DNA of 64,000 bases from an uncultured Bacillales bacterium (GTDB lineage: Bacteria; Bacillota_I; Bacilli_A; RFN20; CAG-288), in assembly GCA_905211645.1 (NCBI GenBank), contig CAJMBK010000008.1:8272-72271 (forward strand). Direction: 5' to 3'. Below the pieces are notes generated by a model. It had not been told where the DNA came from. It did no database searches and saw only the letters and a program-made list of their open reading frames with translations. Below, piece after piece: positions 2,749 through 63,465 of this stretch. Position 1 is the first letter of the stretch, and each line of letters starts with the position of its first letter. Both the position numbers and the translations under genes were made by a program.

Positions 2749-3049
2749 AAGACATTTTTTCCTTTCTGGTTATTAGTATTATAGCGAAAATTTAAGAATT
2801 TACTCGTCAAGATAATACTAATAAGTAGCCGTGAAATATATTATGAAATGACTTGAATATTTGGTCTAAATAATAAGAAAATTAATATAGTGTGAAAACA
2901 CTTAAAACAATTATCTTGGAAACTACAATTATTCTACGTAGAAATTACCGAATAAATTTAAAATAAATTCTATTAACCAACCATCTCATTTGATAATTTA
3001 AAAATGGCAACTTCTTAAAAAATTACTATATTAAATATATATATAAAAG

Positions 3050-3096
3050 AAAATGCTGTGTATCCCTGATTAAACTAGGTTTGCACAGCATTTTTA
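3050..3096 (-). terminator. intrinsic terminator hairpin downstream of speB (stem atgctgtg/cacagcat, A/T runs both sides)
   Basis: 8-9 bp inverted repeat 3053-3060/3084-3091 flanked by A-run and T-run. Confidence 0.4.
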
Positions 3097-3117
3097 GATT
3101 CAATACTAAATTACTAA

Positions 3118-4017
3118 TTATTTCTTATTAACTTTATGTAAGAGAAGAACCATCTCTCTTAAAACTTTGCAAGCAACTTGAGTAGAAACCTTGCTTGGAT
3201 CGTAATCAGGAGAAAGTTCAACAATGTCTGCACCGACAACGTTATGTAAGTTACTCATCAAAAGAATAGCATCTTGCAATTCTTTGTAGGTGATACCACC
3301 TGCTTCAGGAGTACCAGTGCCAGGGAAAACACTTGGGTCTAAGACATCCAAATCGATTGTGATATAAACTGGTTTATCTTTAAGTTCTTCAACAACTTTA
3401 TCTAAACCAACAGTATCAAATTTTCTTTGGTGAATATTTTTACTTGCCCAGACGAATTCACTTCTATCACCGGAACGGATACCGAATTGATACAAGTTAG
3501 CTTTGGAGTGGTCAAGCATATCGTAACATTTTCTTAAAACAGTTGCGTGAGAGAGTTCTCTACCTAAGAATTTTTCTCTTAAATCGGTATGAGCATCGAA
3601 GTGAATGATGTTAACATCTGGATATTTCTTAACAATTTCTCTCATGACACCATAAGTTGTTAAGTGTTCACCACCAATCATCATTGGGATTTTTTCATCA
3701 TCCAAAATATTCTTAACTGTTTCGGAAATAGCGTCCAAATCTTTTTCAACGTCACCCATTGGCATTTCGATATCTCCGATATCGCATGTTGGGTAATCCT
3801 TCAAATCCATATCAAAATATGGGGAATACCATTCCATTCCGATTGATTCTGCTCTTATTGCAGGACCAGCAAATCTGGTGCCAGGACGGTAGGAGCAAGT
3901 TGCATCCATTGGTGAGGAGAAGATAACAACTGAGCTATCTTTATACTCTGCATCGCAGGATTGGAAAACAGATAAATTTCTTTGATATCTATTTTTAGTA
4001 GTCATAATTAATCTCAC
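3118..4017 (-). CDS. speB: agmatinase (ureohydrolase/arginase family)
   Basis: Mn-binding motifs DAHTDL and DLDVLDP, ~290 aa, immediately downstream of Arg decarboxylase. Confidence 0.8.
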   Translation of the reverse strand: MRLIMTTKNRYQRNLSVFQSCDAEYKDSSVVIFSSPMDATCSYRPGTRFAGPAIRAESIGMEWYSPYFDMDLKDYPTCDIGDIEMPMGDVEKDLDAISETVKNILDDEKIPMMIGGEHLTTYGVMREIVKKYPDVNIIHFDAHTDLREKFLGRELSHATVLRKCYDMLDHSKANLYQFGIRSGDRSEFVWASKNIHQRKFDTVGLDKVVEELKDKPVYITIDLDVLDPSVFPGTGTPEAGGITYKELQDAILLMSNLHNVVGADIVELSPDYDPSKVSTQVACKVLREMVLLLHKVNKK

Positions 4018-6781: not shown

Positions 6782-7051
6782 TTAGCGATTTGCTAAATCT
6801 TGTTTATACATTTTTAATGCTTTAGCAATTTGGTCTGGGCAGCTTGTACCCTTGGTATGGCATTCAACGCCTTCCAAACAATTGATAACTTCATCAATTG
6901 ATCTTCCTTTAACTAAGGCAGCGATACCTTTCAAATTACCGTTGCAACCACCGACGACTCTTAATGAAACAATCTTGTCATTTTCGTCAATTTCAAACTC
7001 CATTTCTTTGGAGCAAACACCTTGTGGTTTATATTTGAAAATTTTAACCAT
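6782..7051 (-). CDS. TSCPD-domain small protein (TIGR03905-like 4-Cys protein)
   Basis: 89 aa with conserved ...KGTSCPDQIAKAL... and four Cys; last gene of the rnf-linked operon. Confidence 0.55.
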   Translation of the reverse strand: MVKIFKYKPQGVCSKEMEFEIDENDKIVSLRVVGGCNGNLKGIAALVKGRSIDEVINCLEGVECHTKGTSCPDQIAKALKMYKQDLANR

Positions 7052-7053
7052 AT

Positions 7054-7614
7054 TTACCTTCTCCTTTTTATTCTTGCACGATCTTTAAATGGTGGCATTC
7101 TCACTAAAAGCATGCGGCAGATTATGGATAATAATAATCCTGCTAACATTGAAAGAAGTGCTAAGATTGCAAGATAACTAATTATATAAAATTGCATTGA
7201 GATGAGGGCGTACATTAGCACCTGTCCCGTTGCGTGGAATAAAGCAGAAACAATAGAAACAGAATAGATGGAACATTTCAAAAACTTGTAGAGTATTATT
7301 GAAATAATAACCGCAAATGTCGAACCAGAGAATGAAAGTAAAAATCCCGTTCCAAAACCGGTGGAAATTAAGCTAACCAATAAAATTCTGAAGTAAGTTA
7401 CTGCTAAATACTCCTTCCAATCAATATAAAATAGAACGAATAATCCTACAATATTTGCTAATCCCAATTTAAAACCAGGAATAGGGATTGGAATTACAAT
7501 AAGGTTTTCAAAGTAATGAATTACACTAGCAAGGGCGACAAATAATGCAATTCTTACGATACGTTCAATGGATAGATTACGCATCTGGCAAATCAGGATC
7601 AACGTAGCCACCAA
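7054..7614 (-). CDS. Gx transporter family membrane protein (heptaprenyl-diphosphate-synthase-component-I-like, PF07456-type)
   Basis: 186 aa, ~5 TM helices, sequence pattern typical of this family; overlaps upstream NusG_II gene by 38 nt. Confidence 0.5.
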   Translation of the reverse strand: MVATLILICQMRNLSIERIVRIALFVALASVIHYFENLIVIPIPIPGFKLGLANIVGLFVLFYIDWKEYLAVTYFRILLVSLISTGFGTGFLLSFSGSTFAVIISIILYKFLKCSIYSVSIVSALFHATGQVLMYALISMQFYIISYLAILALLSMLAGLLLSIICRMLLVRMPPFKDRARIKRRR

Positions 7615-8065
7615 CGATAACTATCGAAAGATGATTTGGATCGCAGATAATTGGAACGTTGGAATAGGAGATAACTCCCTGATGAGAACAGATCTTTCTA
7701 GGGCTAGTTTCCTGGACAACTTGAATGGAATGGTCAACGATTCTAACTTCAACTGTGTCGCCTACAAATTCAAATTCTTGACCATTTTCATTAGGTTTGA
7801 TGTTATTTTTTGAATCTCCGGTAATACCCATCTCTCTAGTGATAACTAATGGGTCATGCTCCTCAGTGATAGGTCTGTAGTAAATAACCTGCTGACCATA
7901 CGAGATTTGAACGTAACTCATATCATCAACGGTGTGAGTCATACCGAAAATTGTGTACATTAAAAGGGCAACTACAAGTAAAATTGAAATAGCAATTACA
8001 ATCACATCACGCACGTGTAAATTGTAGCGTGGATTAATTTTACTGTTGTTACCCATTATTTGCAC
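7577..8065 (-). CDS. NusG domain II-containing protein (DUF1312-like), N-terminal membrane anchor
   Basis: 162 aa, single N-terminal TM then beta-rich domain; classic partner gene of Gx transporter. Confidence 0.5.
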   Translation of the reverse strand: MQIMGNNSKINPRYNLHVRDVIVIAISILLVVALLMYTIFGMTHTVDDMSYVQISYGQQVIYYRPITEEHDPLVITREMGITGDSKNNIKPNENGQEFEFVGDTVEVRIVDHSIQVVQETSPRKICSHQGVISYSNVPIICDPNHLSIVIVGGYVDPDLPDA

Positions 8066-8073
8066 ACTAAAGT

Positions 8074-8388
8074 TTAGAGAGTAACTTTAACCTTCTCTCC
8101 GTTTGGACCTGTAGAATTGTTTAAATATTCAACAACTTCGTTTGCTTTGTCAGCCTTGATAACTTTGCATTGCTTGACATGAGTTTCTTTTTCAGAAAGT
8201 AATGCATCGACTAAACCGGAACAACCAGGATAGCCGCAAGCACCGCAGTTAACACCTGGCATAAGCTTCATAACTTCATCTTTTCTAGGATCATCTTTAA
8301 CAGAGAAGTATTTAACGAATAATGCGATAAGTAAACTGAATAAAATAGCTGCACCTAGTAATAAAAGTAAAATATACAAATATTCCAT
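8074..8388 (-). CDS. RnfB-like subunit, N-terminal Fe-S domain only (lacks 4Fe-4S ferredoxin domains)
   Basis: N-terminal TM + CGACGYPGC...C motif aligning with RsxB/RnfB residues 1-100; ORF ends where ferredoxin domains normally begin. Confidence 0.65.
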   Translation of the reverse strand: MEYLYILLLLLGAAILFSLLIALFVKYFSVKDDPRKDEVMKLMPGVNCGACGYPGCSGLVDALLSEKETHVKQCKVIKADKANEVVEYLNNSTGPNGEKVKVTL

Positions 8389-8399
8389 AGTTACCTCCT

Positions 8400-8723
8400 T
8401 TATTTGATTGATTTTTCTTTCTTCATCTCTTCGATGAATTTCTTCTGCTCAATTTCAAGTTCCTTCTTTTTCAAAGGTTTAACTGCTTCAAGAGGGACGT
8501 AGAGTTTTCTAGTCCCATCCTTGAAGAAATATTCTTTAATTGAGAATTCTTCCTCCCTTGAGTTGCAAGAAAGCATGCAACTTGCGCAGCCGATATCCTC
8601 TTTTGGACAATCTTCTGGGCGTTTAACTTTCTTGTTAACAAGGTAGAAAATAGCGTATAAGGCAACAAGTACAACAACGACAGGGATGATGTACAAGGCG
8701 TTGTAATTAAAGGTTAAAAACAC
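8400..8723 (-). CDS. Cys-rich small membrane protein (FeoB-associated Cys-rich membrane protein-like)
   Basis: 107 aa: N-terminal TM, KKVKRPEDCPKEDIGCASCMLSC (C-x6-C-x2-C-x3-C), charged C-terminus; sits between rnfA and rnfB-like. Confidence 0.5.
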   Translation of the reverse strand: MFLTFNYNALYIIPVVVVLVALYAIFYLVNKKVKRPEDCPKEDIGCASCMLSCNSREEEFSIKEYFFKDGTRKLYVPLEAVKPLKKKELEIEQKKFIEEMKKEKSIK

Positions 8724-8727
8724 TTAA

Positions 8728-9312
8728 TTAACCCATCATTCCAGATAAGCCTAAGAATGCAAGAGCCATACCGGCAGTGCAGATTAAGCCAATGGCTGGA
8801 CCTTTGAAACCACGAGGAACCAAAGGATTGTTTTGGATTCTTTCTTGAATTGCAGAAAAGACGTAGATAACTAAGAAATAACCTAAAGGTGTACCGATGA
8901 TTGTACCTAATGTTGTACCGACGGAAACAGCTTCACCACCTGTGTAAGCGACTGATAATGCGACGCCTAAAACAACACAGTTTGTGGTGATTAAAGGTAA
9001 GTAGATACCTAAACTCTTGTAAAGGCTTGGAACGAATTTCTTGATGAAGATTTCAAGAAGTTGGACAAAGCTTGCAATGACAAGAATGAAGATGATGGTG
9101 TTCATGAATGTAACACCGATGAGTGCAGTTAAATAGGATAAACCCCAGCAGATGAGTCCAGATAAGATGGAAACAACTGTTAAGGCAAGACCCATACCGG
9201 TAGCAGTCTTCTTATTGGAGGAGACGCCAAGGTAGGAACATAAACCTTTGGTACCGGATAAAACAACGTTGTTAACAAGTAAACTACCAAAGAATGCAAC
9301 GATAAATGACAT
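8728..9312 (-). CDS. rnfA: Rnf electron transport complex subunit A
   Basis: GIYLPLITTNCVVLG core motif, 6 TM, 194 aa. Confidence 0.85.
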   Translation of the reverse strand: MSFIVAFFGSLLVNNVVLSGTKGLCSYLGVSSNKKTATGMGLALTVVSILSGLICWGLSYLTALIGVTFMNTIIFILVIASFVQLLEIFIKKFVPSLYKSLGIYLPLITTNCVVLGVALSVAYTGGEAVSVGTTLGTIIGTPLGYFLVIYVFSAIQERIQNNPLVPRGFKGPAIGLICTAGMALAFLGLSGMMG

Positions 9313-9314
9313 GA

Positions 9315-10076
9315 TTATTTGACCTCCTTAGCTGTTTCTTGTTTTGCTTTTGCTAATAAAGCTTTCTTTGCTTCTATAGCTTTCTTAGTCTTTCTATCAG
9401 AATTCCAAAGTCTGATTGTGGTAAAAACACCTAAGACCAAGCCGAAGACGATGAAGCCACCAGCATTTTGAGTAAGTAAAGGAATCTTGATTGCTTCTAA
9501 AGGTAAGAAGGAAAAGATTTGCTTGTTAGTGAATGGGTTAACAAATGTGATACCACCAGTGCCCAAAACTTCTCTAAAGAATGCGATGATTAAGCAAGCG
9601 AGTGCGAAACCGATTGACATGCCAAGAGCATCCAAAACGGATTTACCAACACTGTTCTTCCTTGCGAAGGCTTCAGCACGACCTAAGATGATGCAGTTGA
9701 CTGTGATTAAAGGAATGAAGACACCCAAAGATGTGGAAAGTTCAGGTGTGAATGCCTTTAAAAGTAAATCAACAATGGTAACAAGTGAAGAGATGATGAC
9801 GATGTAGACAGGAACTCTGATTGTGCTTGGAACAATCTTCCTAATAAGTGAAACGAGTAAATTAGAGAAGAATAAGACAATGAGAACTGCAACTGACATA
9901 CCGAGTGCATTGTTGATTGATGTTGTTGCGATAAAGACTGGACATAAACCGAGTAAGCCGACTAAGAGTGGATTCTCTCTGATGATGCCGGCTGTGAAAG
10001 TTTTTAACAATACATTTTCCTTTTTATCAGGAACTGAAGTATTGATTGGTTTAGCATTAATATTTCTTTCTTCCAT
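9315..10076 (-). CDS. rnfE: Rnf electron transport complex subunit E
   Basis: LGLCPVF...GVFIPLITVNCIILGRAEAFA motifs, paralogous to RnfA. Confidence 0.85.
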   Translation of the reverse strand: MEERNINAKPINTSVPDKKENVLLKTFTAGIIRENPLLVGLLGLCPVFIATTSINNALGMSVAVLIVLFFSNLLVSLIRKIVPSTIRVPVYIVIISSLVTIVDLLLKAFTPELSTSLGVFIPLITVNCIILGRAEAFARKNSVGKSVLDALGMSIGFALACLIIAFFREVLGTGGITFVNPFTNKQIFSFLPLEAIKIPLLTQNAGGFIVFGLVLGVFTTIRLWNSDRKTKKAIEAKKALLAKAKQETAKEVK

Positions 10077-10078
10077 AA

Positions 10079-11257
10079 TTATGCCTCCAATGAGCTGATG
10101 GCTTCACCAGCAGCGTTAAGTGCTTTGACCATAGATGGTACGGTTAATTCAGAGCTTGAACCTGTGATGATAGCATCACCTTTTTGTGTTCCTGGGTCAG
10201 AACCTAAGATATAGGCTTGATCCACTTTACCAATCTTGGTTGATGTATCGAAAATGGCATTGATAATTTGCTCGTACAAAAGATTTGATTCTGTATTCAA
10301 CTCGGAATCGTCGATTAAATAAATTTGATCAAGAACTAAATCATCATTATGTTCGTAAATTACAGCGCCGAAAATAACATTACCAAATTGAGGTTCAATA
10401 CTTTCAAGTTTGGCGTAATAACCTTTGGTTGAAGTAGCATTTTCTCTTTGATTTTCGTATTCAAAGGTGTAAAGCTCTAAAACGTTTTCGGTTGCTTCGT
10501 AAGCGGTCTTGACAACAGAGCCTTCCTTCAAGTTATCACCAACAATTGCGGTGATTGCTTCTGGGATTGAAGTTTCTGTATCACTACCATCGCCACCTTG
10601 ATTGTCATCGCCACCTTCACCGGTGTAAGTTGCACCGACACTGTTATAGTGTTTCAAGCAGTAATCAACTGCATCTTGAACAACAGGTGTAGTTTTTTGA
10701 GCAGTACCAGAAGTTTGGATGTATTGAGTGAAATCTTCACCAGCTTGATAACCAGGAACAACGGTGATATTTGTGTAGGCGTTAACACCTAAACTATCTT
10801 CACCAGCGTTTGAATTCAATTTGAATGCGTAAACAGAGCCGTTACCCTTGCCACCAACGATAATCATTGAAACGACAAGTGAACCGGAATAACCTCTTTC
10901 GGTTGTGATGGTGTAGAAGCGGACTGATTCAGTGTCAGTACCTTCCATCAAAGGTTCAGTGACGTAGCACTTTGCAAAAACGTTGATATTTTTATTATTG
11001 CCAGGAATAGTGTCGAAACCTTCAACGCCATCCAAGCCTTTTGTAGTATCGAGTTTGCCTTCAAGCAAGGTGTAAGCATCGTTGTATTTTTGAGCTTCTT
11101 GGTGCTCTAAAACAATTGGATTTGTGCCGGCGTAAACACCGACAACTGCACCACCAGCAACTAAGCAGGTAATACCTAATACTAAAGGATATTTGATAAA
11201 GTTAGACATCTTCTTCTTAGGAGCTTTAGTAGTCTTATTTGTATTAATTTCTGACAT
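10079..11257 (-). CDS. rnfG: Rnf subunit G with N-terminal TM anchor, FMN-binding domain and a second C-terminal FMN-bind-like repeat
   Basis: GYSGSLVVSMIIVGG ... TSGTAQKTTPVVQDAV (FMN_bind); C-terminal module (aa 240-392) homologous to the repeats fused to RnfD, ends ...ITGSSSELTVPSMVKALNAA. Confidence 0.75.
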   Translation of the reverse strand: MSEINTNKTTKAPKKKMSNFIKYPLVLGITCLVAGGAVVGVYAGTNPIVLEHQEAQKYNDAYTLLEGKLDTTKGLDGVEGFDTIPGNNKNINVFAKCYVTEPLMEGTDTESVRFYTITTERGYSGSLVVSMIIVGGKGNGSVYAFKLNSNAGEDSLGVNAYTNITVVPGYQAGEDFTQYIQTSGTAQKTTPVVQDAVDYCLKHYNSVGATYTGEGGDDNQGGDGSDTETSIPEAITAIVGDNLKEGSVVKTAYEATENVLELYTFEYENQRENATSTKGYYAKLESIEPQFGNVIFGAVIYEHNDDLVLDQIYLIDDSELNTESNLLYEQIINAIFDTSTKIGKVDQAYILGSDPGTQKGDAIITGSSSELTVPSMVKALNAAGEAISSLEA

Positions 11258-11268
11258 ATTTAACCTCC

Positions 11269-13470
11269 TTATCCTCTAATAATATTTGCTGCTTGGGCTA
11301 AAGCAGACATAACATCTGGAACTGTTTCTGCACTTGATGGAGCAGTATTGACATAGAAATCTTGGATATTTGATGAAGAACCAAGATCGAATTCATGGTT
11401 GATTGAGTTGATTTCAAGTTTAGTTGATAAATCAAAGATCAATGAGATGAAATGTTCATATAAACCATTATCTGGATGATTTTGCATTTCACTACCATCA
11501 ACTAAATACATGTGATGAACTGTGAGTTTATCACCGTTTTGGATGATTATTGCAGAGAATTCAACAGCACCGAACATTGAACCACTTGTCTTCATTCTTG
11601 CGTAGTAAGCAGTGTTGCTTGTTGCAGAAGCAGGAGCTTCAGTGAATTCGAATGAATACAATTCGAGAACGTTCTTATTTGAATCCTTGTCGAATTCGAT
11701 AGCAGTCATTGATTCTGGATCAAATGAATCACCAGCCATTGCCTTCATACCTGGAGCCTTGCTTTCAACGTTAGTTGGATCGATGATTGAAGCAAGTTTA
11801 ACCAAGGTGTTGTTGATTGCAGGTAATGTGTCTGTTGAAGTTGCACCGGAGATGATTGTTGAAGGATCACCACCTAAAACAACGTAGTGAGTATTCTTAT
11901 CATACTTGGAAAGATGATAGTTTGCTTGACTTGCATCGGTGTAGAAGAGGGAACCGATAACTTGTTCATACAAACCATTTGATTCTGTATCCATCTCGGA
12001 ATCGTCGATAAGATACATTGAATATAAGTTAAGATCTTTGGTTTGTTTATCTTGATACAAGATTGCGGAGAACATGATGTCACCGTAACTTGCACCACTA
12101 GTCATCAAGTTTGCATAGTATGCTGTTGCTCTATCGGTACCGGTAACAGCACTATCTGTTAAAGTGAAGCTTGCTAACTTCAAGACTTGATCTCTATCTG
12201 CTCTATCAACACTGATATTTCTAAATGAATCTGGATCATAGTATTGATTTGCAGTCATTTCGTTGAAACCGTAGTATTTGTTAGGAGAGTAGGTAGGTTG
12301 ATTCATTGCACCGAATGAAACACCGAATAATAAGGATGCGGCAGGTAAAACACTGATTGCAGTGTATTTTGTCCACATATGTTGATTGGTTCTTGCATAA
12401 ACTAATCTATCAATTAATGGAGTGACCATGTTCATGATTAAGATTGAATAAGCAACACCTTCTGGTGCGGCAGCAAAGAATCTGATCATCATAGTGATAA
12501 ATGCAGCACCGGTTGCAAAGATGATCTTACCAGTTCTGTTAACTGGGGATGTAACTGGGTCAGTTAAGCATAAGACGCCACCGAAGAGGACACCACCAGC
12601 CATGATTGCTCTGAATGCGAATTCAAAGCTATCGACGCCCATACCTTGGCAAGCTGCCATCAATAAGTATGTGACAAAGATAGTACCGATGAAGAATGTA
12701 GGAACCCTCCAGTCGATAATTCTTCTGACGATTAAGTAGATACCAATAATAATTAATAAGAAGGCGAAAGTTTCACCTAATGTACCGAAGTACTTACCAA
12801 GGAACATGTCCAAGGTTGAGATTTGTGTGATTGAGTTGTTGATGTTGAAAACATCTGTACCGGAAAAAAGTGTTGAGGTGATGGAAGCACCAGTGTTGAT
12901 TGTGAAATCAAGTGGCTTTTCACCTAAGAATGTCTTAAGTTCTGATGAGAAGCAGAGCTGAGCAAAAATTCTTCCAATGATTGCAGGGTTGAAGATATTT
13001 CCACCGAAACCGCCAAAGACGTTCTTAAAGACAAATGTTGCACCAAATGATGTGATCATAACGACCCACATTGGTGTGCCAACAGGTAAAAGTAAAGCAA
13101 CTAACAAACCTGAAACGTAGGAGTAGTTGAAGATAAACTTCTTGAAGTATGCTTTAACTCTTGTTTCACCTTTTGGAAGGTTTAAACGTTTCTCATCCTT
13201 CCAGAAAATAGGAAGATAGAATATAGCGTCGGCAAGTACTGAGAATAACATTGCACAAACGCCCATGCCGATTACTTTAAGACCGTAATACCAACCGTAG
13301 TAATTTCTGGCGAGGAGTTCTTCGCTTGATAAGAAGGTGTCGCTGACTGAGTAGAAGATAATTGCTGCTACCCATAAAGCGACGACGCAACCGAAGAATT
13401 CCATCATCATCTTGAAGGTTGAATTCTTACCTCTTAAATGTGGTCCGGCTTGATTAGCAAACTTAACCAT
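11269..13470 (-). CDS. rnfD: Rnf subunit D (NqrB family) fused to an extra TM helix and two C-terminal FMN-bind-like domains
   Basis: Core FGGFGGNIFNPA, TGASITS flavinylation-type motif, TDPVTSP; aa 368-388 extra hydrophobic helix; repeats aa 440-565 (ends ISGATSTDT) and 610-733. Confidence 0.8.
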   Translation of the reverse strand: MVKFANQAGPHLRGKNSTFKMMMEFFGCVVALWVAAIIFYSVSDTFLSSEELLARNYYGWYYGLKVIGMGVCAMLFSVLADAIFYLPIFWKDEKRLNLPKGETRVKAYFKKFIFNYSYVSGLLVALLLPVGTPMWVVMITSFGATFVFKNVFGGFGGNIFNPAIIGRIFAQLCFSSELKTFLGEKPLDFTINTGASITSTLFSGTDVFNINNSITQISTLDMFLGKYFGTLGETFAFLLIIIGIYLIVRRIIDWRVPTFFIGTIFVTYLLMAACQGMGVDSFEFAFRAIMAGGVLFGGVLCLTDPVTSPVNRTGKIIFATGAAFITMMIRFFAAAPEGVAYSILIMNMVTPLIDRLVYARTNQHMWTKYTAISVLPAASLLFGVSFGAMNQPTYSPNKYYGFNEMTANQYYDPDSFRNISVDRADRDQVLKLASFTLTDSAVTGTDRATAYYANLMTSGASYGDIMFSAILYQDKQTKDLNLYSMYLIDDSEMDTESNGLYEQVIGSLFYTDASQANYHLSKYDKNTHYVVLGGDPSTIISGATSTDTLPAINNTLVKLASIIDPTNVESKAPGMKAMAGDSFDPESMTAIEFDKDSNKNVLELYSFEFTEAPASATSNTAYYARMKTSGSMFGAVEFSAIIIQNGDKLTVHHMYLVDGSEMQNHPDNGLYEHFISLIFDLSTKLEINSINHEFDLGSSSNIQDFYVNTAPSSAETVPDVMSALAQAANIIRG

Positions 13471-14885
13471 TATTTTTTAACCTCCTCATTCTTCTCATTC
13501 TTTTTCTTAGAAAAGAGTGAAGTGATGAATTTCTTAATTTTTTCTTTGCTCTCTTGAGCTTCGGTCATTTGACCAGGTTTGAATTTCATTCTAGCCATCA
13601 TCTTAGCTTTGGACATGTTGGCTGTGACATCGATGTGGGATGGGCAGACAAATGAACACATACCGCATTCGACACACTTCAAGACATCCAATTCGTAGCA
13701 ACGATCGACGTCGCCTCTGTTGATAGCCATTTGAATTTGAACTGGTTGTAAGCCCATTGGGCAGTGATCGACACACTTACCACACTTCCAGCATGGTTCG
13801 GCGTGAATGTCGTACTTAGATAAGATTGTGAAACCACCAGATTGTAAAACTGTTGGGAAATCTGCAGTTAAAACTGCTCTACCGCACATTGGACCACCGT
13901 TGACGATCTTGACATCTTCCAAGGCGTAACCGCCAGTTGATTTGATAATTTCATCAACTAAGGTACCGACTGGGCATTCGACGTTAGTTTGATTGCTGAC
14001 GCCATCACCAGCGATTGTGATAACCTTCTTGGAAATTGTTGCACCATCTCTGAAAAGTCTACCAACTGCTTCAAGAGTTTGTAAGTTGTTGACGATTACA
14101 TGACATTCTGCAGGTAAAACGTTGTAACTTCTGTGAAAAACGTAAGAGATGAGTGTTCTTTCAAAACCCATTGGGTAACGATCTGGAGTCAAAGTGATCT
14201 CGATAATTTCCTTGAGTTCAGGATGATTCTTCAAGGCGTTTGTGCAAGCTTCAATCAAATGAGGTTTGTTTTCCTTGATTGCAATGATTGCTCTCTTTGC
14301 ATTCATGACTTTAACTAAAATTGGTAATGCATAGAACAAATCTTCGATGCATCTGCTACCTTCGAGGTAGTCAGTTGTCAAGTAAGGCTCACATTCGATT
14401 GCATTGACTAAAATAGTGTCAATTTTAACTTCGGGTTTGGTGTTATATTTGATGAATGTTGGGAAACCAGCACCACCAAGACCAACGATACCACCTTCTT
14501 TAATCTTGTTAACAACATCTTCTTTAGTTGGATTATCAACCAACTTTTCTAAGTGCTCTGTTGTGTACAATTTGTCATTTTCGATGACAAAGTGATCGAC
14601 TTGTCTTCCACAGATTGTAGAAGTTTTCTTTTCAATAGCGACAATTTTACCGCTAACTGATGAGTAAACTGGAATACCAAAGTCACCTCTGATACCAAGT
14701 CTAGTGCCCACTTTTACTGAAGCACCAACCTCCAACATTTCATTCAAAGGCATAGCTTTATTGTCTACGCATTGAATGTAGACCTTATCAGGTTCGTAGC
14801 TAACGATAGGATTATCAGCTTGAGGGTGTTTATGACCATCGATCTTAGTCATACCACTAGTTCCTAAAAACTTAAAATTAGGCAT
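13470..14885 (-). CDS. rnfC: Rnf subunit C (NADH-binding, 2x[4Fe-4S])
   Basis: GLGGAGFPTFIKY NADH/FMN motif; CWKCGKCVDHCP and CVECGMCSFVCP ferredoxin motifs; ATGA overlap with rnfD. Confidence 0.85.
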   Translation of the reverse strand: MPNFKFLGTSGMTKIDGHKHPQADNPIVSYEPDKVYIQCVDNKAMPLNEMLEVGASVKVGTRLGIRGDFGIPVYSSVSGKIVAIEKKTSTICGRQVDHFVIENDKLYTTEHLEKLVDNPTKEDVVNKIKEGGIVGLGGAGFPTFIKYNTKPEVKIDTILVNAIECEPYLTTDYLEGSRCIEDLFYALPILVKVMNAKRAIIAIKENKPHLIEACTNALKNHPELKEIIEITLTPDRYPMGFERTLISYVFHRSYNVLPAECHVIVNNLQTLEAVGRLFRDGATISKKVITIAGDGVSNQTNVECPVGTLVDEIIKSTGGYALEDVKIVNGGPMCGRAVLTADFPTVLQSGGFTILSKYDIHAEPCWKCGKCVDHCPMGLQPVQIQMAINRGDVDRCYELDVLKCVECGMCSFVCPSHIDVTANMSKAKMMARMKFKPGQMTEAQESKEKIKKFITSLFSKKKNEKNEEVKK

Positions 14886-15122: not shown

Positions 15123-15710
15123 TTAAGCTTTGACAATTGTACCTTCAGCGTTGCCTTGTAAACCTAAAGCGTTGCTTTCATCGGTATCAATGTGCATTGC
15201 TAATGCAAACTTAGGCGAAACTCTGACAACGACATCACCTAAAATAGCTGTTCTTTCTCTTGGTGATTCAATTTTAACTGAAACAATTTCACCGTTTTTA
15301 ACGCCATATTCGGCTGCATCTTCTTCAGTCATGTGGATGTGACGTTTTGCAACGATTAAACCTTCTGTTAATTCGGCTTCACCTTTAGGACCAACAATCT
15401 TGATAGGTGCGGAACCTTTAATATCACCAGATTCTCTGATAGGAGCATCAACACCTAAAGTTCTGCAATCTGTTAAAGACATTTCGACTTGGTTAGCCTT
15501 TCTTGCTGGACCTAAGATAGAAACGTTCTTAATTGTATTCTTTGGACCAACAACATCAACTCTGCTTGTAGAAGCAAATTGACCAGGTTGGCTCAACATT
15601 TTCTTAACTTCCATTTTTGCATCTTCACCAAATAAAACTTTGAATGTTTCTTCGGTGACGTGAACGTGACGAGCACTAGTTTCAACAACAAATTTCTTTT
15701 CTGAAGACAT
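15123..15710 (-). CDS. pduL: phosphate acyltransferase PduL family (phosphotransacetylase/propanoyltransferase)
   Basis: 195 aa with two repeated His-containing halves (ARHVHVTEE / KRHIHMTEED) typical of PduL/EutD-like. Confidence 0.6.
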   Translation of the reverse strand: MSSEKKFVVETSARHVHVTEETFKVLFGEDAKMEVKKMLSQPGQFASTSRVDVVGPKNTIKNVSILGPARKANQVEMSLTDCRTLGVDAPIRESGDIKGSAPIKIVGPKGEAELTEGLIVAKRHIHMTEEDAAEYGVKNGEIVSVKIESPRERTAILGDVVVRVSPKFALAMHIDTDESNALGLQGNAEGTIVKA

Positions 15711-60504: not shown

Positions 60505-60700
60505 GGCGACCTTAAAGCAAGGCGAGGCTAATTACGAGACACGGATGCATGCCTGATAGAAAAGGAGACTTTCCTAGATGGCCAACAGCTATAATTGACG
60601 CCAAAGTTATAGATAATTGCATTCAAACGCTTGTAGAAGTTGAAGCTCACGCGTCAAAAGGTACCTTTAGGCTTCCTTTCGATGTTATGTTTTAAGGAAG
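60505..60700 (+). promoter_or_regulatory. M-box (ykoK-type) Mg2+ riboswitch candidate in mgtA leader
   Basis: Blocks AGGCGAGGCU, GAGACACGGAUGCAUGCC, AUGGCCAACAG, AUUGACGCCAAAGUUAU match M-box consensus; followed by hairpins next to the RBS. Confidence 0.55.
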
Positions 60701-60714
60701 TTTGGAGGTATCTT

Positions 60715-63465
60715 ATGAAAATTTTAAAGAATAAGAGAATCCTAATTGCTTCCTCATTAGCTACATCAAAGCAAAAAGATTTTTTGCTTGAAGTTTCTAA
60801 AATGGACAATAAGGATTTGCAAGAAAAATTCCAAGTCGATTTCGAAAAAGGAATTTTAACTGAAAATCTTGAGACTTTAGAAGAAACATATGGTAAAAAT
60901 ACCATCACTAAAGTTAAAAAAGAACCGATTATAATAAAACTACTTAAATCATTTGCTTCACCTTTTATTTTAATCTTACTTTTCATTGCAATAATTTCTG
61001 CAATCATCAACTATTTTGATAGTGGTGCTGATGAACATGCTACTTGGTTTATCACTCCTATCATCATTTTAGCCATGATTCTTTTGTCTGGTTTAATCTC
61101 TTTCAGCCAAAATTTGAAGTCTGAAAGATCAATGAATAACCTTAAAAACATGACTGAAAATAACTCTTTAGTTTTAAGAGACGGAGTTAAACAAGATATT
61201 TTAAATGAGCACTTAACAATAGGAGATATCGTCTATCTTTCTTCGGGTGACATGATTCCAGCAGATTTAAGAATCATTCAAAGCAAAGAATTATTCTTGG
61301 TTCAAGCAACATTAACCGGTGAGCAAGATGCAATTGAAAAGAAACCTACTACAGCTGAACTTAAAGACGAAAATGATCTTTTCAATCTTGAGAATATGGT
61401 TTTCCAAGGAACAACTGTCGTTTCCGGTAGTGGTGTTGGTGTTGTCTGTTCAATTGGAAATAATACAATCTTTGGCTCACTTTCTAAAAAAGTGTCTGAA
61501 AAGAAAGGCAAAACATCATTTGAGATTGGAATTAATTCTATCGCTAGATTACTTTTAATATTTGTCTCTGTTATGGTTCCATTAATTCTTATTTTCAGAG
61601 GCTTTGGTCTTCAAATTTCAGGAAACGGAGTATCAATTGGTAGCTATAATGATTTGACTCAATGGACTCAAGCATTCGTTTTTGCAATCTCAGTTGCAAT
61701 AGGAATGATGCCAACCCTTTTACCTATGCAAATTGCATCAAACTTAGCAAAGGGTGCAATTAACATGTCCAAGAAACAAGTTATTGTTAAAGATATCAAC
61801 TCCATTCAAAATTTTGGTGCTATGAATATCTTATGCACTGATAAAACTGGAACTTTAACTGAGAATAAATCTAAAGTTGCAAGTTACTTCTCAGCATGGA
61901 ATGAAGAAGATGAAAAGATTCTTCGTTTAACTTTCTTAAATTCCTACTATCAAACAGGTATTAAATCTTCAATTGACACTTCAGTTCTTGATTATGTTAA
62001 CTCCAATCAAACTAACTTCCAAAAAACAATTAGTGGTATGACAAAACTTGATGAAATTCCATTTGATTTTGAAAGAAAGAGACTTTCTGTTCTTTTAAAA
62101 GATGGTGATGGAAATATCTTCATGATTACAAAAGGTGCCTTGAATAACATGCTTTCAATCCTTAAATACATCAAGACTAAAAATGGTGTTAGACAAATTA
62201 TTCAAGACGATATTAGGACAATCCAACACAATATCGAAAAAGAAGCTGATAAAGGTAGGAGAGCAATTATTATTGCAACCAAGAATTTAGATAAAACTGA
62301 AATCGGTGTAGCTGATGAAAATGAATTAACCTACAACGGCTACATCTCTTTTGAAGATACACCAAAAGAAAGTGTAACTTCTGCATTAAAGAGTCTTAAA
62401 GAATACGGTGTTGAAGTTAAAGTTTTAACCGGTGATTTAAAAAATAATGCTGTCAATATCTGCCAACAAGTCGGTTTTGAAAATATCAAAGTTATCTCTG
62501 GAACTGAACTTAATAAGTTAAATCAAGAAGATTATCATAAAGCAGTCAAAGAGAATAATATCTTTGTCAAACTTACTCCAGAAGATAAATTCAATATCGT
62601 CAAAGCATTAAGAGAGAATAAGAATGTTGTTGGTTTCATGGGTGATGGCATTAATGATGGTCCAGCACTCCACGAAGCAGATATCGGAATTTCTTTTAAG
62701 GATGCTACTGATATCGCTAAAGAAACTGCAGATATCATCATGCTAAACAACAATTTAAATGTCTTAGCTGAAGGTATTCTTGAAGGTAGAAAATCATACT
62801 TAAATATGATCAAGTACATCAAGATTCAAACTTCATCAAATTTTGGTAACATGATCAGCCAAATCATCGGCTCCCTATTCATTCCATTTTTACCAATGAG
62901 AGCTCTTCAAATTATTCTATTAGGTTTAATTTCAGATTTCTCATCTTCATTTATACCATTTGATAAGGTCGATAAAAAAGATTTGATGCAACCTATCAAA
63001 TTTTCAACAAAATCTATCAGAAACTTCATGTTCACATTCGGACCAGTTTCTTCCATTGTTGATATATTAACTTTCATTACATTACTACTCTATATTTGCC
63101 CTATGCAGGCAGGAGGAGCACTAAATAGTTTGGATACAGAAGGTAAGCTTCTCTTTATTGCACTTTTCCAAACTGGTTTCTTCCTAGAATCACTAATTAC
63201 GCAAAACTTTGTCTTTTTAACCTTAAGAACTGATAGAATTCCATTTATTAAATCTCGTCCATCAGTTATTTTCTCACTCAGTGTAGTTGTTGCAATCTTA
63301 ATTGGCTTCTTTGTCTGCTATGTTCCTGTAGTTAGCCATATCTTCTCATTTGGTGATTTATCAATTATCTTCATCGGTATCTTAGCTGGAATGCTAGCTT
63401 TATACATCACACTAACTCAAGCGATAAAACCTCTATACAAGAAGTTCAATTTGAATTATCTATAA
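60715..63465 (+). CDS. mgtA: Mg2+-importing P-type ATPase
   Basis: DKTGTLT, TGDLKNNA, GDGINDGPAL motifs, ~915 aa, 10 TM; start set at MKILKNKR after tggaggt RBS. Confidence 0.85.
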   Translation: MKILKNKRILIASSLATSKQKDFLLEVSKMDNKDLQEKFQVDFEKGILTENLETLEETYGKNTITKVKKEPIIIKLLKSFASPFILILLFIAIISAIINYFDSGADEHATWFITPIIILAMILLSGLISFSQNLKSERSMNNLKNMTENNSLVLRDGVKQDILNEHLTIGDIVYLSSGDMIPADLRIIQSKELFLVQATLTGEQDAIEKKPTTAELKDENDLFNLENMVFQGTTVVSGSGVGVVCSIGNNTIFGSLSKKVSEKKGKTSFEIGINSIARLLLIFVSVMVPLILIFRGFGLQISGNGVSIGSYNDLTQWTQAFVFAISVAIGMMPTLLPMQIASNLAKGAINMSKKQVIVKDINSIQNFGAMNILCTDKTGTLTENKSKVASYFSAWNEEDEKILRLTFLNSYYQTGIKSSIDTSVLDYVNSNQTNFQKTISGMTKLDEIPFDFERKRLSVLLKDGDGNIFMITKGALNNMLSILKYIKTKNGVRQIIQDDIRTIQHNIEKEADKGRRAIIIATKNLDKTEIGVADENELTYNGYISFEDTPKESVTSALKSLKEYGVEVKVLTGDLKNNAVNICQQVGFENIKVISGTELNKLNQEDYHKAVKENNIFVKLTPEDKFNIVKALRENKNVVGFMGDGINDGPALHEADIGISFKDATDIAKETADIIMLNNNLNVLAEGILEGRKSYLNMIKYIKIQTSSNFGNMISQIIGSLFIPFLPMRALQIILLGLISDFSSSFIPFDKVDKKDLMQPIKFSTKSIRNFMFTFGPVSSIVDILTFITLLLYICPMQAGGALNSLDTEGKLLFIALFQTGFFLESLITQNFVFLTLRTDRIPFIKSRPSVIFSLSVVVAILIGFFVCYVPVVSHIFSFGDLSIIFIGILAGMLALYITLTQAIKPLYKKFNLNYL

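Follow-up and report, generated by a model that had tools for sequence, protein, structure and literature searches.

A minimal, FdI-only RnfB and a conserved four-cysteine membrane peptide in an Rnf operon of an uncultured Bacillales bacterium

The window analyzed here, a stretch of 64,000 nucleotides (64 kb) from an uncultured Bacillales bacterium, carries an rnf operon on its minus strand. The open reading frames follow the order rnfC-D-G-E-A, then an ORF of 107 aa, then an RnfB of 104 aa. The genes of the operon and of its downstream side are listed below in the direction of transcription, with coordinates of the window.

13470..14885, minus strand: rnfC, 471 aa, NADH/FMN-binding subunit (TIGR01945, 310 bits against a cut-off of 246)
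11269..13470, minus strand: rnfD, 733 aa, with the membrane core in residues 1-360 (PF03116, E = 2.4e-63)
10079..11257, minus strand: rnfG-position gene, 392 aa, a membrane helix and two extracytoplasmic domains (assigned by operon position)
9315..10076, minus strand: rnfE, 253 aa (NF009070, 228 bits against a cut-off of 184; PF02508 match)
8728..9312, minus strand: rnfA, 194 aa (PF02508, E = 2.2e-44; TIGR01943, 169 bits)
8400..8723, minus strand: four-Cys single-pass membrane protein, 107 aa, between rnfA and rnfB
8074..8388, minus strand: minimal RnfB, 104 aa, a membrane helix and FdI (PF04060; Cys motif at nt 8167-8247)
7577..8065, minus strand: membrane-anchored NusG_II-domain protein, 162 aa, 8 nt past rnfB (PF07009, E = 3.4e-12)
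7054..7614, minus strand: Hpre_diP_synt_I / Gx-transporter-type membrane protein, 186 aa (PF07456, E = 1.2e-30)
6782..7051, minus strand: TSCPD four-Cys protein, 89 aa (TIGR03905, 103.9 bits against a cut-off of 67.7), followed by metK

Pfam and TIGR matches agree with the NusG_II, Gx-transporter and TSCPD identities proposed for the three genes downstream of rnfB in an earlier, sequence-only reading of this DNA. The NusG_II-domain gene occupies the same place at loci L001, L009 and L010, and the synteny of the TSCPD gene is shared with L001, L003, L005 and L009. RnfC additionally matches Complex1_51K, RnfC_N and Fer4 and contains two [4Fe-4S] motifs, while both cluster-ligating cysteines are kept, judging by sequence, in RnfA and in RnfE. 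Beyond its membrane core, RnfD has a C-terminal extension of approximately 370 aa (about 11269-12390), which consists of two repeats of approximately 150 aa with 36% identity to the C-terminal domain of RnfG. A TGAS flavinylation-type motif is present in RnfD, and an SGAT motif of this type is found in one of the extra extracytoplasmic repeat domains of RnfD/RnfG. Searched as separate fragments, the repeat domains of RnfD and RnfG gave no Pfam match at E up to 10, FMN_bind included; the rnfG-position gene likewise has no Pfam FMN_bind match and displays a weak match only to TIGR01947 (E = 0.012). In relatives, FMN_bind domains are fused to RnfD and RnfE. A tblastn search of the window gave no match to ApbE, and apbE lies outside the rnf operon in the peptide-bearing genomes compared. 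Scanning the operon for promoters and terminators returned sites no commoner than in shuffled sequence. In our tentative reading, the Rnf complex encoded by the operon is complete (RnfC, D, G, E and A) and its electron-input side is minimal; we hold this view jointly with the whole explanation given below and at slightly less than an even chance.

The RnfB of this operon consists of a membrane anchor and the N-terminal cluster domain (FdI), without the ferredoxin-like C-terminal domain. It matches the Pfam family PF04060 'FeS' with 37.6 bits against a cut-off of 23 and aligns solely with the N-terminal ~100 positions of RnfB models of 265-293 residues, which bears out the earlier claim that only the N-terminal cluster domain is kept. 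Its scores against full-length RnfB models fall under the cut-off (for example, 44 against 68.7 for TIGR01944). The protein aligns with residues 12-101 of the 333-aa RnfB of A. woodii (chain 9eri_B, E = 1e-9), and its N-terminal region with the membrane helix of 9eri_B and 7zc6_B. In the AF2 model (pLDDT 86.7), residues 2-28 form a helix with pLDDT above 90, and the soluble part fits onto the N-terminal [4Fe-4S] domain of CFeSP, the corrinoid iron-sulfur protein, with an rmsd of 1.3-2.1 Å; the likeness of FdI to this domain is already published (PMC9588780). The motif C48-x2-C51-x4-C56-x17-C74 is invariant in 11 homologues, and many short RnfBs end in a conserved tail, ..GPxGxxLKVxL, in place of the C-terminal domain.

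A six-frame search of the 64-kb window for CxxCxxCxxxC motifs found just two, both in RnfC, so that no ORF with a doubled CxxCxxCxxxCP motif follows rnfB, as had been supposed. Nor is a ferredoxin domain encoded downstream of 8074 in any of the three frames, where a frameshift might have restored one. Short RnfBs of 95-129 aa are present at 29 related Bacilli loci, each beside rnfCDGEA, and the short form is therefore no artefact. A pseudogene or an assembly error combined with a chance ORF is next to impossible as an explanation: the same architecture recurs in dozens of independent assemblies, residues are invariant, dN/dS is low, the other frames are free of ferredoxin motifs, and rnfB is preceded by a strong ribosome-binding site (AGGAGG at 8394-8399, 5 nt upstream). 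The hosts of short RnfBs include Erysipelotrichaceae, Acholeplasmataceae and other Bacilli genomes, and a rough neighbour-joining tree groups the short RnfBs in a single clade.

The minimal RnfB is not new in kind, and T. maritima provides the published precedent, which the sequence-only reading had overlooked. The RnfB of T. maritima is naturally short, at 10.56 kDa with one predicted [4Fe-4S] cluster (Kuhns et al.; PMC9588780); according to the published description it likewise comprises a membrane helix and FdI only, in about 100 aa. Our literature search for a naturally truncated RnfB, or for RnfB in Erysipelotrichaceae, gave only T. maritima, and papers on peptide-bearing organisms describe their rnf operons as canonical rnfCDGEAB. 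T. maritima is an anaerobic fermenter with the same gene order, rnfC-D-G-E-A-B, and the same expected ferredoxin:NAD+ and ion-transport activity, but it belongs to Thermotogae and not to Bacilli, it has no reported small ORF between rnfA and rnfB, and RnfD and RnfG are much enlarged here in comparison. Canonical RnfBs (A. woodii 9eri_B, 333 aa; C. tetanomorphum 7zc6_B, 274 aa; A. vinelandii 8ahx_B, 174 aa) share the homologous helix and the CxxCx4Cx17C FdI (E from 1e-9 to 1e-6), whereas their C-terminal domain with its 2-7 [4Fe-4S] clusters, which serves as the ferredoxin dock and is held fixed against RnfC/RnfD, is missing here altogether.

Between rnfA and rnfB lies the gene for a Cys-rich membrane protein whose motif, C39-P-x5-C46-x2-C49-x3-C53, is exactly the C-P-x5-C-x2-C-x3-C that had been noticed in the sequence. 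The gene has a GTG start at 8723, 4 nt past the rnfA stop, with a TTG at codon 10, position 8696, as an alternative start. The peptide has one confident membrane helix at residues 12-31 (nt 8631-8690), then the P36/C39/C46/C49/C53 motif (about nt 8565-8618) and a Lys/Glu-rich tail that varies among relatives. P36 and the four cysteines are invariant among 20 and among 51 homologues with a mean identity of 28-30%, and dN/dS in the helix-plus-Cys core ranges over 0-0.38, mostly below 0.2, which points to purifying selection and leaves the ORF's conservation, on which the earlier reading depended, well established. Family members share one membrane helix followed by P-x2-C-x6-10-C-x2-C-x3-4-C, where the spacing of the cysteines varies. 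The family falls into 593 clusters when grouped at 90% identity and into 422 at 50%, all of 51-110 aa, with Traorella massiliensis, Catenisphaera adipataccumulans, Peloplasma aerotolerans and Acholeplasma spp. among the carriers. It is apparently a conserved and previously undescribed family of small membrane proteins. Gene callers missed the peptide gene at loci L007/L008, and elsewhere it is labelled hypothetical or mislabelled FeoB-associated. The AF2 model of the peptide has a mean pLDDT of 63, with the Cys loop below 50, and the conserved soluble part amounts to only about 25 residues. By the positive-inside rule, the Cys loop would lie on the cytoplasmic side, close to the membrane.

We compared the peptide with several known protein families. 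Up to E = 10, none of 20 members matched PF04400 (NqrM), though HMMER filters may hide very weak matches. Searches against PDB sequences gave chance-level ferredoxin-motif matches only (E above 2). The CxxCxxCxxxCP motif is absent from the peptide, and no Fer4 family is shared among the members, with Fer4_6 appearing in one of the 20 at E = 0.32. A degenerate duplicate of the RnfB N-terminus was also considered: hhalign gave a probability of 93%, but the signal comes from the membrane helix, and homology is not established. With the helix removed, the peptide-RnfB profile score is 16.2, while shuffled columns give a mean of 8.9 (sd 2.2) and a maximum of 16.4. Between the two options of a split or a minimal RnfB that had been put forward, the minimal one is thus upheld by the FdI-only protein; the split one is not supported, as the peptide contains no CxxCxxCxxxCP and its similarity to RnfB stems from the helix.

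Peptide and short rnfB occur together in related genomes. Surveyed from the RnfB side, the peptide gene lies upstream of short rnfB at 20 of 25 genome loci and at none of 53 loci with a long RnfB. Surveyed from the peptide side, rnfA is found upstream at all loci (45/45) and short rnfB downstream at nearly all (41/42). The five short-RnfB loci that have no peptide (L020, L021, L022, L045 and L072) demonstrate that the peptide is not required for an FdI-only Rnf. The start codon of the peptide gene frequently shares bases with the stop codon of rnfA (TAATG or TGATG), as does its stop codon with the start of rnfB. These overlapping codons suggest translational coupling, which is common for co-assembled subunits. 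The linkage is confined to one clade, however, and shared ancestry without functional coupling could therefore explain the co-occurrence. In none of the best 150 representatives is the peptide fused to RnfA or RnfB. One apparent peptide-RnfB fusion, at L103, was dismissed as a frameshift in an error-prone assembly, where rnfA is fragmented too. Short RnfB and peptide are also found beside RnfD and RnfG of normal size (L003, L091), and the extensions of RnfD and RnfG are therefore a separate trait.

In canonical complexes, FdI is a mobile shuttle to the [2Fe-2S] cluster of RnfA/E, and the C-terminal domain docks ferredoxin (PMC12174285, PMC9588780). Our best explanation for the operon is a minimal ferredoxin-dependent Rnf with a Cys4 membrane subunit, which we favor provisionally, rating it as a little short of an even bet as a whole. 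The FdI of the short RnfB, singly tethered, small and mobile, would be reduced by ferredoxin directly and would pass its electrons to the intramembrane [2Fe-2S] cluster between RnfA and RnfE. By analogy with T. maritima, the complex would most likely still be a reversible ion-translocating ferredoxin:NAD+ oxidoreductase. The peptide would most likely be a lineage-specific, stoichiometric small subunit packed with the membrane helices of RnfA, RnfE and RnfB. At the mouth of RnfA/E, on the cytoplasmic side, it may carry a Cys4 site for a metal or an Fe-S cluster, and this site may serve as a relay or as a docking point for FdI, partly replacing the lost fixed FdII/III scaffold. Metal or cluster binding, a place in the mature complex and a redox role are all properties that we infer for the peptide. 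We regard as rather unlikely the proposal that the peptide is a seventh Rnf subunit with a redox-active Fe-S (or Fe) center at the membrane surface, and that it forms with the FdI-only RnfB a new minimal input module, perhaps with its own donor specificity, in place of the multi-cluster ferredoxin dock in Erysipelotrichales/Acholeplasmatales.

A close rival of the subunit reading is a transient, NqrM-like Cys4 factor that delivers iron or Fe-S to the [2Fe-2S] site of RnfA/E or to FdI and stays outside the mature complex, with the Rnf otherwise FdI-only and ferredoxin-dependent; we consider it somewhat unlikely. NqrM is needed for the insertion of [2Fe-2S] in NqrD/E (review PMC12174285). Both proteins begin with a single membrane helix, continue with four conserved cysteines on the cytoplasmic side and are encoded inside the operons of homologous pumps (NqrD/E are of the RnfA/E type with an intramembrane [2Fe-2S]), although the match is one of architecture only, the lineages differ, and similarity to PF04400 went undetected in 20 of 20 members. 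The Cys loop without an autonomous fold and the flexible spacing of its cysteines suit a carrier better than a fixed redox center. Several features weigh against a subunit: AF2 yields no confident fold for the loop (pLDDT below 50), some 25 conserved soluble residues are few to shield a stable redox cluster alone, the spacing varies over x6-10 and x3-4, and five short-RnfB loci lack the peptide. This dispensability in some short-RnfB lineages agrees with an assembly factor, and the parallel between the two pumps is suggestive, since NQR lost RnfB and has NqrM, and the clade described here truncated RnfB and has the peptide. Canonical Rnf systems, on the other hand, do without such a factor. 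The position of the gene also differs: nqrM closes the nqr operon, behind apbE, whereas the peptide gene is placed between two structural genes with overlapping codons. Details on NqrM were reportedly given by Kostyrko et al. in 2016.

More distant from the ferredoxin-dependent subunit reading is the possibility that Rnf here no longer uses ferredoxin, and that the short RnfB and the peptide form a module for another partner: flavodoxin, a specific oxidoreductase, or NADH donating electrons to the enlarged extracytoplasmic RnfD/RnfG in extracellular electron transfer. The absence of the ferredoxin-like domain, the extra extracytoplasmic repeats of RnfD/RnfG, one of them with the SGAT flavinylation-type motif, and the fusion of RnfD and RnfE to FMN_bind domains in relatives would fit such a change, and multi-copy FMN-binding domains have been tied to extracytosolic electron transfer (PMC10979944). 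The repeats in the window, however, are without a Pfam FMN_bind match, the extensions are a trait separate from the short RnfB, and the NADH module of RnfC and the cluster ligands of RnfA/E are intact, as in the normal semicircular electron path of Rnf. Moreover, the purified Rnf of T. maritima transfers electrons from clostridial ferredoxin to NAD+ and transports Na+ (PMC7414866, PMC9588780). Because this FdI-only complex works with ferredoxin, the short RnfB alone is no argument for another substrate; the donor or acceptor other than ferredoxin that had been envisaged for this operon loses its footing, and we consider the replacement of ferredoxin improbable. The least probable role for the peptide, with a very small chance of being correct, is that of a FeoB-associated Cys-rich protein (PF12669) involved in iron uptake or handling and present in the rnf operon by chance. 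That family also consists of small peptides with a helix and a Cys cluster, is common in Firmicutes, and gives weak matches to 6 of 20 members of the peptide family (best E = 0.002); in addition, the UniRef name of one sequence, P0071, reads 'FeoB-asso...'. All of these matches are under threshold, and the peptide itself scores 18.7 bits against a gathering threshold of 27. The published FeoB-associated motif is Cx3-5Cx2-3Cx6-8C, in proteins encoded downstream of or fused to feoB (PMC8749426), whereas the peptides have C-x6-10-C-x2-C-x3-4-C, with the spacing in the opposite order, and at every locus examined their genes sit between rnfA and rnfB, never beside feoB. The resemblance to this family that was noted at first is weak, and membership fails on HMM score, Cys spacing and genomic context alike.

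In anaerobes, many gut Bacilli included, Rnf is central to energy conservation. To our knowledge, no published structure shows the FdI domain in an ordered state, and the electron route to the intramembrane RnfA/E cluster is consequently poorly resolved. A clade in which Rnf operates with FdI alone and a tiny Cys4 protein offers a naturally simplified system to study electron entry. Should the peptide be a subunit, the six subunits of the textbook Rnf would not be the full set in hundreds of species. An NqrM-like role would instead make it the first dedicated factor for Fe-S maturation tied to Rnf, and would help to explain the failed expression of Rnf in other hosts.

The minus strand of the window, which has a G+C content of 32.7%, carries a closely spaced row of genes from rnfC through metK:

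13470-14885, minus strand: rnfC, strong family match
11269-13470, minus strand: rnfD, strong family match
10079-11257, minus strand: gene in the rnfG position of the row
9315-10076, minus strand: rnfE, strong family match
8728-9312, minus strand: rnfA, strong family match
8400-8723, minus strand: 107-aa ORF (its product and homologues are called the peptide here), between rnfA and rnfB
8074-8388, minus strand: 104-aa ORF (short RnfB), after the peptide ORF
after the 104-aa ORF, minus strand: gene for a membrane protein with a NusG_II domain
after the NusG_II gene, minus strand: gene for a Hpre_diP_synt_I or 'Gx transporter' membrane protein
after the Hpre_diP_synt_I gene, minus strand: gene for a TSCPD 4-Cys protein, followed by metK

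Both cysteines ligating the intramembrane [2Fe-2S] cluster are kept in RnfA and in RnfE, and RnfD retains a TGAS flavinylation-type motif, as read from the sequence. The locus holds all core Rnf parts, an RnfB reduced to its first [4Fe-4S] domain (FdI), and a co-encoded, conserved four-Cys membrane protein.

The 104-aa protein matches PF04060 above the Pfam threshold, covers just the first ~100 positions of RnfB models (265-293 residues) and aligns to the A. woodii RnfB structure (a chain of 333 aa) over residues 12-101, bearing out the sequence-only reading that it corresponds to RnfB by the N-terminal cluster domain only. Its cysteines, C48-x2-C51-x4-C56-x17-C74, are unchanged in eleven homologues, and the gene is preceded by an AGGAGG ribosome-binding site. 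The AF2 model (pLDDT 86.7) pairs a membrane helix with a small helical domain, and the latter fits onto the corrinoid iron-sulfur protein, at its N-terminal [4Fe-4S] domain, with an rmsd of 1.3-2.1 A; the same likeness was described for the RnfB FdI domain by Vitt et al. (PMC9588780). No ferredoxin-like sequence or ferredoxin-motif ORF follows 8074 in any frame, and the motif CxxCxxCxxxC occurs at two sites in the six frames of the 64-kb window, both in RnfC. RnfB is present here in an FdI-only form. A C-terminal tail, YLN-x-T-x-G-P-x-G-x-x-L/V-K-V-x-L (window 8074-8115), is shared by many short RnfBs and is absent from some peptide-bearing members; in alignment it matches the beginning of the domain that follows FdI in A. 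woodii RnfB (..GSAVKKV). The tail may be what is left of the lost domain's first strand, and might perhaps serve as a second anchor.

A protein search returned a family of 94-116-aa proteins related to the short RnfB. Among 84 RnfB loci compared, 29 have complete short rnfB genes (95-129 aa, without ferredoxin motif), all of which stand behind rnfC-D-(G)-E-A; their genomes are labelled Erysipelotrichaceae, Acholeplasmataceae, Traorella, Solobacterium, Bulleidia, Onthovivens or 'Bacilli', a few of the bin labels being implausible. RnfB at the remaining loci, from Clostridia, Nitrospirota, Planctomycetota and others, has 255-608 aa and 1-5 ferredoxin motifs. A rough neighbour-joining tree built on the FdI region unites the short forms in a single clade. 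Shortness of RnfB is a lineage trait and not an error: the 29 complete genes, together with the motif-free downstream sequence, speak against a frameshift hiding ferredoxin domains. Four of the loci (L011, L045, L054 and L013) have Erysipelotrichales-type rnf operons in MAGs labelled Methanomethylophilaceae archaeon, Staphylococcaceae, Sodaliphilus or Eubacteriales, with the peptide in all but L045; these contigs are probably mis-binned or mislabelled.

A precedent exists in Thermotoga maritima, whose RnfB, like that of the window, is the FdI domain alone (PMC9588780), a protein of just 10.56 kDa for which a single [4Fe-4S] cluster is predicted (Kuhns et al. 2020, PMC7414866). Both NAD+ reduction with clostridial ferredoxin and Na+ transport were shown for T. 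maritima membranes and for the purified complex (PMC7414866). According to a 2025 review, the ferredoxin acceptor of RnfB is its multi-cluster C-terminal domain, and FdI, on a flexible tether, is the shuttle that serves the RnfA/E [2Fe-2S] cluster (PMC12174285). By analogy with T. maritima, the FdI-only RnfB is a known variant still working with ferredoxin, of which the window provides a new occurrence. Since the T. maritima complex uses ferredoxin, the earlier suggestion of a different donor or acceptor loses most of its support.

The peptide is the less expected part of the locus. A search with the 107-aa sequence alone found one near-identical cluster, and translation of the rnfA-rnfB gap revealed the same kind of ORF almost everywhere in relatives, including a 52-aa member missed by the gene caller (L007 5138-5293, L008 6229-6384); such small ORFs are probably under-annotated in public genomes. 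A profile search retrieved 593 clusters at 90% identity (422 representatives at 50%). All listed members are 51-110 aa, and the named ones are 'hypothetical' proteins of Traorella massiliensis, Catenisphaera adipataccumulans, Erysipelotrichaceae, Acholeplasmatales or Bacilli. They share an N-terminal membrane helix, a basic stretch, the consensus N-K-K-T-P-x-P-K-G-C-E-x5-9-C-x2-C-x3-4-C and a variable tail of 0-60 residues, often Lys/Glu-rich. Exactly five columns, P36, C39, C46, C49 and C53 in window numbering, are invariant when 20 or 51 members with mean identities of 28-30% are aligned. For moderately diverged pairs, the core of helix and Cys motif has a dN/dS of 0-0.38, mostly <0.2. AF2 models the membrane helix confidently and the Cys loop not. 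The peptide is a real, conserved protein with the helix and four-Cys motif first noticed between rnfA and rnfB, and the low dN/dS and invariant residues contradict the proviso that the ORF might not be conserved.

Its proposed kinships fared worse. The resemblance to the FeoB-associated Cys-rich family did not hold: PF12669 scores lie under the gathering threshold, with matches in only 6 of 20 members, and neither the motif nor the context agrees with the Cx3-5Cx2-3Cx6-8C pattern downstream of or fused to feoB (PMC8749426). A split RnfB, with the peptide as the missing half, was also rejected, as the peptide has no ferredoxin motif and its profile match to RnfB (93% probability) collapses when the membrane helix is taken out. 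None of the 20 members scanned matches Pfam NqrM, a PDB sequence search gave no relative, and the literature searched contains no description of the family.

The family HMM was run in six frames over all compared loci. Of 25 genome-scan loci, 20 have a peptide ORF directly 5' of their short rnfB, as does every close relative, and no such ORF lies near any of 53 long RnfB genes (10 kb on each side); the co-occurrence analysis proposed for related operons ties the peptide to the short form alone. Starting from the peptide, in three look-ups and 44 metagenome loci that include many near-duplicates, rnfA is immediately upstream in 45/45 evaluable cases and a short, ferredoxin-free rnfB immediately downstream in 41/42. 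The single exception is a frameshifted assembly, L103, in which the two ORFs seem fused into one 154-aa frame (2968-3429); rnfA is also fragmented on this contig and the near-identical L108 and L116 have separate ORFs, marking the apparent natural fusion as an indel artefact. The peptide start commonly overlaps the rnfA stop (TAATG or TGATG), as does its stop the rnfB start. Four of the five short-RnfB loci without the peptide are at the base of the short-RnfB clade; therefore, the truncation is probably older than the peptide, which is not strictly required. All carriers belong to one clade, so co-occurrence by itself does not prove functional coupling.

Other features of the operon vary. RnfD of the window has 733 aa, versus about 350 in canonical complexes; its residues ~361-733 (window 11269-12390) contain two ~150-aa repeats, 36% identical to the C-terminal domain (window 10079-10560) of the 392-aa RnfG-position protein. 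One repeat has the canonical SGAT flavinylation-type motif and the others degenerate TGSS and TAPSS; none matches Pfam FMN_bind, even scanned fragment by fragment, and they may be divergent 'FMN-bind2'-type domains (cf. PMC10979944). Sizes in relatives range widely (RnfD 350-622 aa, RnfG 166-628 aa). The Traorella-like L090 and L007 have enlarged RnfE (368-369 aa) and RnfD (485 aa), encoded at L090 7300-8409 and 5319-6776 and at L007 3440-4546 and 1460-2917; these unusual fusions give the outside of the complex extra flavin-binding domains, Pfam FMN_bind being recorded for RnfD of both loci and, in L090, for RnfE as well.

The three small genes after rnfB (window 6782-8065; gaps <=8 nt or overlaps) keep their order in the related loci L001, L009 and L010, and are absent in more distant peptide-bearing relatives; in L003 the TSCPD gene (TIGR03905) overlaps the rnfB stop. 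Relatives of the 'Gx transporter' give weak ECF-transporter matches, and flavin export for flavinylation is one possibility for the three genes. By tblastn, window 1-64000 has no ApbE flavin-transferase gene; relatives carry one downstream at 5-10 kb, or upstream of rnfC in divergent orientation. A PduL-type phosphotransacylase gene (PF06130, window 15123-15710) just upstream of rnfC, likewise placed in L001, L003 and L005, fits an acetyl-CoA/ferredoxin-based fermentative metabolism. Elsewhere, an M-box (Mg2+) riboswitch (window 60505-60666; 61 bits, gathering score 44) precedes a P-type cation ATPase gene (60640-63465), whose listed TTG start falls within the riboswitch; the real start therefore probably lies downstream of the listed one.

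Basic residues directly follow the helix in both RnfB and the peptide, which suggests that both Cys motifs should face the cytoplasm; the first Cys of the peptide is only about 8 residues from the membrane. We tentatively favour a ferredoxin:NAD+ oxidoreductase of the T. maritima type with the peptide as a small stoichiometric subunit, as its gene lies between two structural genes with coupled translation. A putative Cys4 site for a metal or an Fe-S cluster, placed where RnfA/E opens to the cytoplasm, would then aid docking or electron transfer of the singly tethered FdI, the fixed FdII/III scaffold being lost. A close rival, in itself rather unlikely, gives the peptide a function like that of NqrM, a four-Cys protein with one membrane pass on which assembly of the corresponding Na+-NQR cluster depends (PMC12174285). 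A Cys loop so small, with variable spacing and apparently no fold, would suit a carrier, and NQR offers a parallel, having lost RnfB and gained NqrM. Another donor or an extracellular electron route, which the enlarged RnfD and RnfG domains might suggest, appears improbable and is unsupported; several peptide-bearing relatives do not have these domains.

The favoured subunit arrangement and its rivals concern a system that is directly testable in cultured species. A 2024 paper on Peloplasma aerotolerans calls its operon canonical rnfCDGEAB and gives the Rnf accessions MDI6452236-38, 40-41 and 43; the gap before the last of these would fit an extra gene before rnfB.
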